Source: an uncultured bacterium
GTDB taxonomy: Bacteria > Verrucomicrobiota > Verrucomicrobiia > Verrucomicrobiales > DEV007
Reading direction: 5' to 3'
Assembly (NCBI GenBank): GCA_963977015.1
Contig: CAXBMO010000004.1
Coordinates: 320,001-384,000, forward strand
Length of the DNA: 64,000 nt
The notes under the pieces were generated by a model. That model was not told the DNA's origin. It ran no database searches and worked only from the letters and a program-made list of their open reading frames with translations. Below, one piece after another: positions 10,728 through 13,514 of the stretch (positions are counted from its first letter, which is position 1; every line of letters starts with the position of its first letter). Position numbers and translations under genes: made by a program.

Positions 10728-11222
10728 ATGATTCGGCCGGTCACCCACAGCGATTGCGAAGCGATTCGCGAGATCTACAATTACTACATTGAGGAGACGA
10801 TCGTCACTTTTGAGGAAGAACTCGTGACGACCGACGAGATGGCCAGACGGGTGCGCGAAACGTCAGAATCCTACCCCTGGCTCGTTTGCGAGGAAGGCGG
10901 TGAGATTACCGGTTACGCCTATGCCCGAACCTGGCATCCGCGCTCGGCCTATCGTTTCTCGGTCGAAAGCAGCGTCTACCTCGGCAAGGGAAACGAGCGA
11001 AAAGGGCTCGGCAGCGCCTTGTATGCCGAGCTGCTGCCAAGGCTCCAAGCCCTGTCGATCCACTCCGTCATCGCGGGCATTTCCCTTCCCAACGAGGCAA
11101 GCGTTGCGATCCACGAAAAGTTCGGCTTCAAGAAAGCCGCCCACTATCGCGAAGTCGGCCGGAAATTCGATCGCTGGATCGACGTTGGCTACTGGCAATT
11201 GATCTTTGAGCCCGCTCCCTAG
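10728..11222 (+). CDS. GNAT N-acetyltransferase, phosphinothricin/methionine-sulfoximine acetyltransferase-like
   Basis: IYNYYI..T..TFE, R.AYRFSVE.SVY, GLGSALY, PNEASVAIHEKFGF, VGRKFDRWIDV. Confidence 0.9.
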   Translation: MIRPVTHSDCEAIREIYNYYIEETIVTFEEELVTTDEMARRVRETSESYPWLVCEEGGEITGYAYARTWHPRSAYRFSVESSVYLGKGNERKGLGSALYAELLPRLQALSIHSVIAGISLPNEASVAIHEKFGFKKAAHYREVGRKFDRWIDVGYWQLIFEPAP

Positions 11223-11563
11223 AAAACCTTGTCGTTCCATCCCCACATCCCCCGTTCGACATTTTCAAACGTGACGTAGGTGCGGCTTTTTTCGACCTTC
11301 AAGACGTTGCTCGACAGCTCGCAAAGGATCCTGGTTAGCTCGTCCGCCTTTTCCGCGGGCAACCCGAGCGCCTTCAACTCAAAAACCGCCGCAGGCTCCT
11401 CGCTTCCCCCAAACCGCATCGCTTGCCCGGCTTGAAGTGACGCCATGAAGTAATCCTCCGACTTCCCCAGGGCTTTGGAAACCTGTTGAGAAGCCAGTTG
11501 GAGCAATTCTCCACGAGCTTCCGGATCAACGTCTTGATTGGTGAGAACGGAGAGCAACGGCAT
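11219..11563 (-). CDS. MIF/phenylpyruvate tautomerase family protein
   Basis: Catalytic Pro directly after Met (MPLLSVLTN), GKSEDY, C-terminal WGWN..VF, 114 aa. Confidence 0.85.
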   Translation of the reverse strand: MPLLSVLTNQDVDPEARGELLQLASQQVSKALGKSEDYFMASLQAGQAMRFGGSEEPAAVFELKALGLPAEKADELTRILCELSSNVLKVEKSRTYVTFENVERGMWGWNDKVF

Positions 11564-11578
11564 GGCTCGACCTGACAG

Positions 11579-12439
11579 CTATTCTGACGACCAGGCTTGC
11601 GCGACTTGGCGCTGCTCGCCCAAGCTCTCAATGCCCAACTCGATCACGTCGCCGGGCTTCAGATATTGCGGAGGATCAAATCCCATCCCAACACCAGCCG
11701 GAGTACCGGTAGAAATGACGTCCCCGGGAAGCAGGCTCATGAACTGGCTCAGGTAACTGACCAAATGAGGAATCTTGAAGATCAAATTCGCGGAACTGCC
11801 GTCCTGCTTCGTCTCTCCATTGACCTTGAGCCACATCTTCAGATTATCCACATCTGCCACCTCGTCCCGGGTCGCCAGGAACGGCCCGAAGGGAGCAAAA
11901 CTGTCCGCGCTCTTTCCTTTGACCCACTGGCCCTGGCGCTCAATTTGGAAAGCCCGTTCGCTGTAATCGTTGTGCAGCGCATAGCCCGCAACGTAATTCA
12001 GCGCATCCGATTCCTCGACGTAGCTGGCGCGCTTGCCAATCACGACCGCGAGCTCAACTTCCCAATCCGTCTTCTCGCTTCCTTTGGGAATGACCAGAGC
12101 GTCATCAGGACCCGTCCAACTGCTGGTGGCCTTGGAAAAGATGATCGGCTCCGGCGGAGGCGTCATCCCGGTTTCTTCGGCGTGATCGCTGAAGTTCAAT
12201 CCGATGCAGATCAACTTGCTGGGACGACAGATCGCCGGTCCCAAACGCTCGGACGGATCCACCTTCGGAGCCGAAGCGGCATTCGCATCTGCCCAGGTTT
12301 TGAGCTTCGCCAGTCCATCGTCGCCAAAAAAAGCTTCGTCCCAGTCTGAACCAAACGCCGAAGCGTCAATGCGGGTGCCGTCTTCCAGTTGAAGACCGGG
12401 TTTTTCCTGACCGGGCTGGCCAAAGCGTATCAATTTCAT
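11579..12439 (-). CDS. Fumarylacetoacetate hydrolase family protein
   Basis: CIGLNF.DHA.E, DWEVEL, NDYSERAFQ, GKSADSF, GDVISTGTPAGVG. Confidence 0.93.
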   Translation of the reverse strand: MKLIRFGQPGQEKPGLQLEDGTRIDASAFGSDWDEAFFGDDGLAKLKTWADANAASAPKVDPSERLGPAICRPSKLICIGLNFSDHAEETGMTPPPEPIIFSKATSSWTGPDDALVIPKGSEKTDWEVELAVVIGKRASYVEESDALNYVAGYALHNDYSERAFQIERQGQWVKGKSADSFAPFGPFLATRDEVADVDNLKMWLKVNGETKQDGSSANLIFKIPHLVSYLSQFMSLLPGDVISTGTPAGVGMGFDPPQYLKPGDVIELGIESLGEQRQVAQAWSSE

Positions 12440-12540
12440 GAGAGGGTGAGTAAAGATTGGGAAGTGAGGGCGTCAAAGCAAAATCGCGGCTTTGCGTTGC
12501 TGCATCCCACAGATCGCCTCAACCGTTACCATTTTTCCTC

Positions 12541-12765
12541 ATGAAGATTTCCATCACCTACTGCGTTCAGTGAAACTACACCCCTCAGGCCACCAGTTTG
12601 GCGGCCGCAATTCAAGAAACCGACGGATTTGAAGTCGAACTCATCGAAGGTGGCGGTGGCATTTTTGACGTCGTGGCCAATGGCGAGCTGATTTACAGCA
12701 AACACGAAACCGGCCATTTCCCCGAGAACGAGGAGATCGTTTCGCTGCTCAAAAACGCGACCTAG
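12541..12765 (+). CDS. Rdx family (SelW/SelT/SelH-like) selenoprotein with in-frame UGA (Sec)
   Basis: MKISITYCVQ-UGA(12571-12573)-NYTPQATSLAAAIQETDGFEVELIEGGGGIFDVVANGELIYSKHETGHFPENEEIVSLLKNAT-stop. CxxU followed by the Rdx G.FDV...G.LIYSK...GHFP motifs in the same frame. Confidence 0.9.
12588..12606 (+). promoter_or_regulatory. Candidate bacterial SECIS hairpin
   Basis: GGCC-A-CCA-[GTT]-TGG-C-GGCC stem-loop, with a GU-containing apical loop 22 nt after the UGA. Confidence 0.6.
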
Positions 12766-13514
12766 CGCAGGTTCATCACACCACCGTCGAAGTCCCAGGC
12801 ACCTCCCGTGACAAATCCGGCATCGTCGGAACAGAGATAGGTCGCCAACTTCCCGATTTCATTCGGTTTCGCCATTCGCCCGATCGGCTGGGCGGCAGAA
12901 AGCTTTTCGAACATTTTCTCTTCTTCACCCGGGTAATTGTTCGCCAGGTAATTGTCGACGAAGGGCGTGTGAACACGAGCGGGACAGATGCAGTTGCAGC
13001 GAATTCCCTGTTCGATGTAGTCGTGCGCGACCGACAGCGTCATCGTGTAAACCGCCCCCTTGCTCATTGAATAGGCGAACCGGTCCTTCAGGCCCACTTT
13101 CGAGGCAATCGACGCCATGTTGAGAACCACCCCACCGCCTGACGCCACCATTTTGGGCAACGCGGCGTGGAGGAAGTTGTAAACGCCTTTGACGTTGACG
13201 TTGTAAACACGATCCATGTCCGCCTCGGTCGTGGTTTCGACCGTTCCGATGTGCGAAATCCCCGCGTTATTGACCAAGACGTGCAGTTGTTTCGCCGCCG
13301 TGACCTTGTCGATCAGCGCGTCGACCTCACTCTGATTCGAAACATCGCAGGCCAAAAACTCGCCGCCGATATCGTTGGCAACGGTCGTTCCCGCTGCCTC
13401 ATCGCGGTCGACAACCCAGACAAAGGCACCCTCCGCGGCAAATTCCCGAGACATCGCTTCTCCAATGCCAGATCCCGCTCCAGTTATGAGGACATTCTTG
13501 TCTTTAAATCGCAT
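12762..13514 (-). CDS. Short-chain dehydrogenase/reductase (2-keto-3-deoxy-sugar acid dehydrogenase-like)
   Basis: TGAGSGIG, NNAG, YSMSK catalytic motif, IRCNCICPARVHTPFVD. Confidence 0.9.
   Translation of the reverse strand: MRFKDKNVLITGAGSGIGEAMSREFAAEGAFVWVVDRDEAAGTTVANDIGGEFLACDVSNQSEVDALIDKVTAAKQLHVLVNNAGISHIGTVETTTEADMDRVYNVNVKGVYNFLHAALPKMVASGGGVVLNMASIASKVGLKDRFAYSMSKGAVYTMTLSVAHDYIEQGIRCNCICPARVHTPFVDNYLANNYPGEEEKMFEKLSAAQPIGRMAKPNEIGKLATYLCSDDAGFVTGGAWDFDGGVMNLR

Follow-up and report, generated by a model that had tools for sequence, protein, structure and literature searches.

Introduction

The stretch of DNA analyzed here (the window; 64,000 nucleotides from an uncultured member of the Verrucomicrobiales) contains a short reading frame interrupted by a single TGA, and the question raised by this locus is whether that codon ends translation or is decoded as selenocysteine (Sec). 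The frame opens with the ATG at 12541, reads MKISITYCVQ up to the TGA at 12571-12573 and then remains open for 63 codons, until the TAG at 12763-12765, giving a product of 74 aa when the internal TGA is decoded as Sec. An earlier note, made from the letters of the window, had described this frame as a hidden gene of the Rdx family, with the UGA exactly at the redox position of a CxxU motif; moreover, it had proposed that the organism uses Sec, and had called this notable for a probable Verrucomicrobiota genome. The sequence confirms the frame itself. Our analyses suggest that the unannotated SelW-like gene is real and that its codon-11 UGA likely specifies Sec, a reading to which we assign a probability of about 0.93. 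The features of the locus are collected in Table 1.

Table 1. Features of the SelW-like locus (positions in the window) and further candidate Sec sites elsewhere in the same genome.
Feature	Coordinates	Strand	Basis
CDS, Rdx/SelW-like, 74 aa, one UGA readthrough	12541..12765	+	profile matches, dN/dS
TGC, Cys8, first residue of CxxU (two genomes of the same family have TGA here, hence UxxU)	12562..12564	+	sequence, alignment
In-frame TGA, codon 11, predicted Sec11	12571..12573	+	homolog alignment
Predicted bacterial SECIS hairpin	12588..12606	+	fold, covariation, frozen codons, published model
Antisense shadow ORF of the public annotation, 63 aa; most likely not a gene	12526..12717	-	singleton cluster, no Pfam match
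CTAG palindrome, common TAG stop of the convergent Rdx and SDR (12762-13514, -) genes	12762..12765	.	
Further Sec candidates (G000); kinds: SelD, two thioredoxin-like, deiodinase/redoxin-like with EF hand, peroxiredoxin, ArsC, small UxxC protein without Pfam match, DsbD, Prx-like membrane protein, HMA-domain protein	C5:256614(-), C2:344553(+), C11:142397(+), C11:34317(+), C2:6232(-), C32:33013(+), C6:242104(-), C12:129476(-), C18:95273(-), C10:58446(-)		

Results

The interrupted frame encodes an Rdx-family protein

The 74-aa readthrough product matches positions 1-73 of the Pfam Rdx profile (PF10262) with 70.3 bits (cut-off 22.6) and the TIGR02174 model (CXXU_selWTH) with 58 bits (cut-off 34.2), which upholds the family identity proposed earlier; the 63 codons following the TGA match, on their own, Rdx profile positions 11-73. 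In the alignment, the motif C8-V-Q-U11 stands opposite the CxxC of homologs and the UGA occupies the second redox position, exactly where the earlier note had placed it. The domain starts at residue 1, with no leader, and this gene provides the single Rdx match in the whole genome. Ranking of TGA sites by the dicodon coding score of the downstream sequence places the Rdx site 6th among the 18,660 sites scored in the genome, and hence the frame is not a product of chance; in a genome-wide scan with a hairpin filter it comes 3rd among 127 TGA sites. The top-scoring NCBIfam model, SelTWH_Campy (NF041051), matches the full length of the product with 85.9 bits, which is just below its cut-off of 88, and therefore we do not assign the protein to this equivalog. 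Seven Cys-type Rdx structures in the PDB match nearly the whole protein by sequence (E 7.5e-11 to 1.1e-4), namely 2fa8 (Atu0228), 2ojl, 2oka, 2p0g, 2obk, 3dex and human C17orf37/MIEN1 (2ljk). These chains are longer (103-117 aa vs. 74 aa here), and in the two alignments inspected their CxxC lies opposite the CxxU, with Cys at the second position.

The genome carries the machinery for selenocysteine insertion

The genome (6.89 Mb, 95% complete) contains selA (contig C1), selB including its C-terminal wing domain (contig C7) and selD (contig C5), all above curated cut-offs, and selD has an in-frame TGA of its own in the motif CAGU. ARAGORN missed tRNA-Sec at default stringency and returned much noise at relaxed stringency, so the Rfam model was used instead, with 150 of 1338 candidates scored. 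One of them, with a UCA anticodon (C5:263260-263354), exceeds the tRNA-Sec cut-off (61.8 bits vs. 47) and fits the model over its full length. The proposal that the organism uses Sec is thus borne out by the presence of all four components. Since Cys-inserting tRNAs that decode UGA ahead of SECIS elements are among those described in PMC13582414, it might be argued that the UGA is read in a SECIS-dependent manner as Cys, by a tRNA of the SelC*/tRNA-ReC type, or partly as Sec and partly as Cys. We consider this improbable, as the one tRNA above the tRNA-Sec cut-off among the 150 candidates scored has the anticodon and the full-length fit noted above and selA, selB and selD are intact.

The UGA is conserved and the downstream frame is under selection

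Conservation of the Sec reading was examined in 41 genomes (the own genome and 40 relatives), which are related by descent and several of which are incomplete. An Rdx match is present in 15 of the 41, and in all 15 the codon-11 column holds TGA. Every Rdx-bearing genome also has a selA match (in G014 a partial one, below the cut-off), none of the 20 selA-negative genomes has any Rdx, and six more genomes are selA-positive without Rdx; in view of the relatedness and incompleteness just mentioned, these counts are purely descriptive. One of the 15 (G009, 82% complete) gave no match to the SelB wing and has a tRNA-Sec. Separately, in the relative G006 (C2:199285-200606) the selA match is split in two pieces, possibly owing to a frameshift or an assembly error.

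Among 57 homologs on named contigs, three of which repeat genomes from the set of 41, TGA occupies this column in 46 (mostly Planctomycetota) and TGC in 10 (alphaproteobacteria), while one has no aligned motif. Trp is found in none of these 57 homologs nor in the 15 own and relative genes, so the column holds TGA or Cys, in line with the Cys or Sec that the earlier note had expected there. The ten CxxC homologs form a separate, long-branched clade (support 100/98). Over the 58 codons compared after the TGA, dN/dS ranges from 0.08 to 0.25 in all seven pairwise comparisons, and the substitutions fall mostly at third codon positions; the post-TGA frame is under purifying selection. Additionally, public run X1 yields a 925-base contig from a related strain that covers the gene (95-99% identity); the TGA is retained in it, and both listed differences within the gene are synonymous. 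Five of the six public runs listed with the locus are labelled marine metagenome, but in the three of these five that were compared only short pieces aligned, and hence we claim no habitat; RNA data sets are absent from the listing.

These data bear on two readings in which the frame would not be a functional selenoprotein gene. The gene could be a pseudogene whose TGA arose by nonsense mutation or through misassembly, given that code 11 stops at codon 11 and that a single change turns TGC into TGA. However, the identical TGA in 15/15 own and relative genes and in 46/57 named-contig homologs from several phyla effectively refutes this, and the related-strain contig with its TGA and the low dN/dS downstream also speak against it, which leaves a pseudogene barely credible. 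Alternatively, the annotated antisense ORF could be the true gene and the Rdx frame incidental to it. This ORF is the sole entry of the standard ORF list at the locus, as the earlier note had remarked in calling it a shadow, and its product is recorded in the public protein collection; yet it stands there as a singleton cluster, a profile search of the product gave zero Pfam matches, and the substitutions follow the Rdx reading frame, falling on its third codon positions. Hence, the antisense ORF is most likely not a gene, and we regard the opposite view as highly improbable. In exact look-ups of the same collection, both the readthrough protein (with U written as C) and its post-TGA piece were absent.

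That this organism reads UGA generally as an amino acid (Trp or Gly), as a conserved gene with an in-frame TGA might suggest, has a practically nil probability and is refuted by the normal use of this codon as a stop (code 11), with 1266 of 3047 long ORFs terminated by TGA and the sequence past these stops scoring as non-coding as that past TAA/TAG, by the CCA anticodon of both Trp tRNAs found, and by the Cys, never Trp or Gly, in the homolog column.

A conserved hairpin follows the UGA

The predicted SECIS hairpin begins 14 nt past the UGA and consists of a 7-position stem with one A-C mismatch and the loop AGUUU (12595-12599), whose conserved G (12596) lies 23 nt past the UGA. With a folding energy of -9.9 kcal/mol, it agrees with the bacterial SECIS consensus as given in Fig. 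2 of PMC13188914 (loop of 3-9 nt with G in positions 1-2, stem of 4-16 bp, 16-37 nt from the UGA, MFE <= -7.5). Taken by itself, the fold energy is not exceptional (z -0.05 to -1.4), and the model is loose: 59 of 61 TGA loci pass it, but so do 7 of 10 Cys homologs and, among 150 true TGA stops, 27. The SECIS model alone is therefore weakly specific, and it is the comparative evidence that carries the case.

In the hairpin alignment, which covers 37 of the 61 TGA loci, 85% of the cells pair, all six slid control positions score worse than the hairpin, and both-side changes in the stem occur in 13 cells, a number reached in 0 of 500 shuffles. Three pairs covary, a count matched by 33 of 500 shuffles, and in 29 of the 37 sequences one particular pair of the seven in the stem does not form. 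Across 56 distinct loci, synonymous codons within the hairpin are frozen, with ACC for Thr in 46/46 and AGT for Ser in 49/49; the hairpin Ala is encoded by GCC in 50/55, facing GCG in 51/56 (GCT/GCA in 4 and 4), and the Thr, Pro and Ala codons adjoining the hairpin show free synonymous variation.

Some relatives carry UGA at both redox positions

In two of the 15 own and relative genes (L012 in G022 and L023 in G009), TGA is present at both redox positions (UxxU) with the same hairpin downstream, and both genomes have a tRNA-Sec. Separate origins of these two UxxU genes are unsupported (AU p 0.217). UxxU forms of Rdx were also found on 24 metagenome contigs (L093-L116), all 24 matching the double-TGA pattern and encoding 21 distinct proteins; as only loci with the two TGAs plus the hairpin could match the search pattern, this number indicates occurrence and not frequency.

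Further selenoprotein candidates

The genome-wide TGA scan revealed ten more Cys-type positions occupied by an in-frame TGA (Table 1). Nine of the ten candidates have the expected Pfam domains and five pass the strict SECIS model. They were picked by hand from a score-ranked list, and hence ten is a lower bound. No Sec-type formate dehydrogenase was seen in the genome, as 0 of 7 matches to molybdopterin domains have an internal stop.

Two further observations concern contig C5. Adjoining selD and divergent from it (L092:3780-6013) are the selenoneine genes senB, above its cut-off and with an in-frame TGA at codon 4, and a senA-like gene, which scores 402 against a cut-off of 420. A Cys-type deiodinase-related gene, below its cut-off, adjoins the tRNA-Sec gene (L092:10356-11267).

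Gene neighborhood and phylogeny

The genes around the Rdx gene (positions 11219-13514 of the window), encoding an SDR, an FAA-hydrolase and an MIF/tautomerase, all lie on the minus strand. Among NCBIfam models, the FAA-hydrolase best matches 2,4-didehydro-3-deoxy-L-rhamnonate hydrolase, with a score below the cut-off. The minus-strand genes are possibly a deoxy-sugar catabolic cluster, with the Rdx gene running in the opposite direction inside it. The FAA-hydrolase is kept in 3/3 same-genus genomes and the SDR in 2/3; neither is found within 1.5 kb of Rdx in 11 other relatives. Since the FAA-hydrolase and SDR genes lie on the opposite strand, they offer no operon argument, and a functional link between Rdx and its neighbors was rejected given this orientation and their retention within the genus only. 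A promoter scan at the Rdx gene gave no sigma-70-like site, and terminator-like matches number two, with 1.1 expected, which is uninformative.

The best three named homologs (81, 76, and 69% identity) are labelled Verrucomicrobiota or Verrucomicrobiales and have the FAA-hydrolase neighbor in common, which agrees with the origin suggested earlier for this DNA. Outside the genus, the closest named homologs are planctomycete, the next matches showing 61-70% identity, and the Rdx tree interleaves planctomycete and same-order sequences. In an AU test on 30 of the rows, placing all 15 same-order sequences in one clade was not rejected (p 0.337); thus, horizontal transfer from or to Planctomycetota is unsupported and cannot be claimed.

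Discussion

The gene described here shares with the known bacterial SelW-like selenoproteins its size, its Rdx domain, the N-terminal CxxU, the in-frame UGA and a SECIS element downstream within the coding region; it differs in that it comes from a Verrucomicrobiales genome and is unannotated. SelW-like proteins are listed with a CxxU motif and one Sec in the tables of two reviews, from 2026 (PMC13188914) and 2022 (PMC9312934). In the sections consulted of earlier surveys, 10 such genes are counted in a 2006 genome survey (PMC1794560), 48 in the Sargasso set (PMC1088965) and 427 in GOS (PMC2398784), the family being the most abundant in both of the latter. The present gene is one more representative of a very common bacterial selenoprotein family and nothing different in kind. 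Its immediate value is mainly an annotation correction, as the protein on public record is the spurious antisense one, and the real Rdx product is missing from the collection.

From the motif alone, the product is predicted to be a small cytoplasmic thiol/disulfide oxidoreductase. Its solved relatives, matched by sequence, have a thioredoxin-like fold. By analogy with the established bacterial pathway, SelD would make selenophosphate, SelA would charge the tRNA-Sec (UCA), and SelB would bind the GU-containing loop of the hairpin and deliver Sec at the UGA; when selenium is absent, translation would end after 10 residues. As may be expected from the family, the Cys8/Sec11 pair could then cycle between the reduced form and a selenenylsulfide, reducing or isomerising partner thiols. 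A 2026 review describes, in the part consulted, prokaryotic SELENOW-like proteins as largely uncharacterized (PMC13188914), and the Rdx gene adds one member to this common family with its little-characterized bacterial function.

The use of Sec in this phylum is not the surprise that the earlier note had taken it for, since it has already been published: in the files consulted from Peng et al. (2016; PMC5029168), 3 of 34 Verrucomicrobia have positive entries for SelD and in each of the two Sec columns. The same files, which give counts with the families unnamed, attribute 1, 4, and 3 selenoproteins to Rubritalea marina, SCGC AAA164-E04 and AAA168-F10, respectively. Our genome resembles these in possessing SelD and the Sec trait, but differs in the number of selenoproteins, with at least 11 candidates against the 1, 4, and 3 known ones.

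The wider points thus lie beyond the Rdx gene itself, in a selenoprotein-rich Verrucomicrobiales family and in the occurrence of CxxU and UxxU over one SECIS. The two reviews mentioned above list CxxU as the only SelW-like motif in their tables (PMC13188914, PMC9312934), and our literature searches found no publication describing a UxxU SelW in bacteria. In group 4 hydrogenases, one SECIS has been proposed to serve two UGAs, of which one may be read by a Cys-inserting tRNA, as set out in the part consulted of PMC13582414. We lean towards the view that the family is selenium-richer than tabulated, given the at least 11 candidates and the senAB-selD selenoneine cluster here versus the 1-4 selenoproteins published, and that, as the CxxU and UxxU forms over one hairpin suggest, one SECIS may serve two UGAs nine bases apart. 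If this is true, these genes would constitute a natural, minimal CxxU/UxxU pair for testing dual-Sec decoding in bacteria and the redox chemistry of the diselenide.
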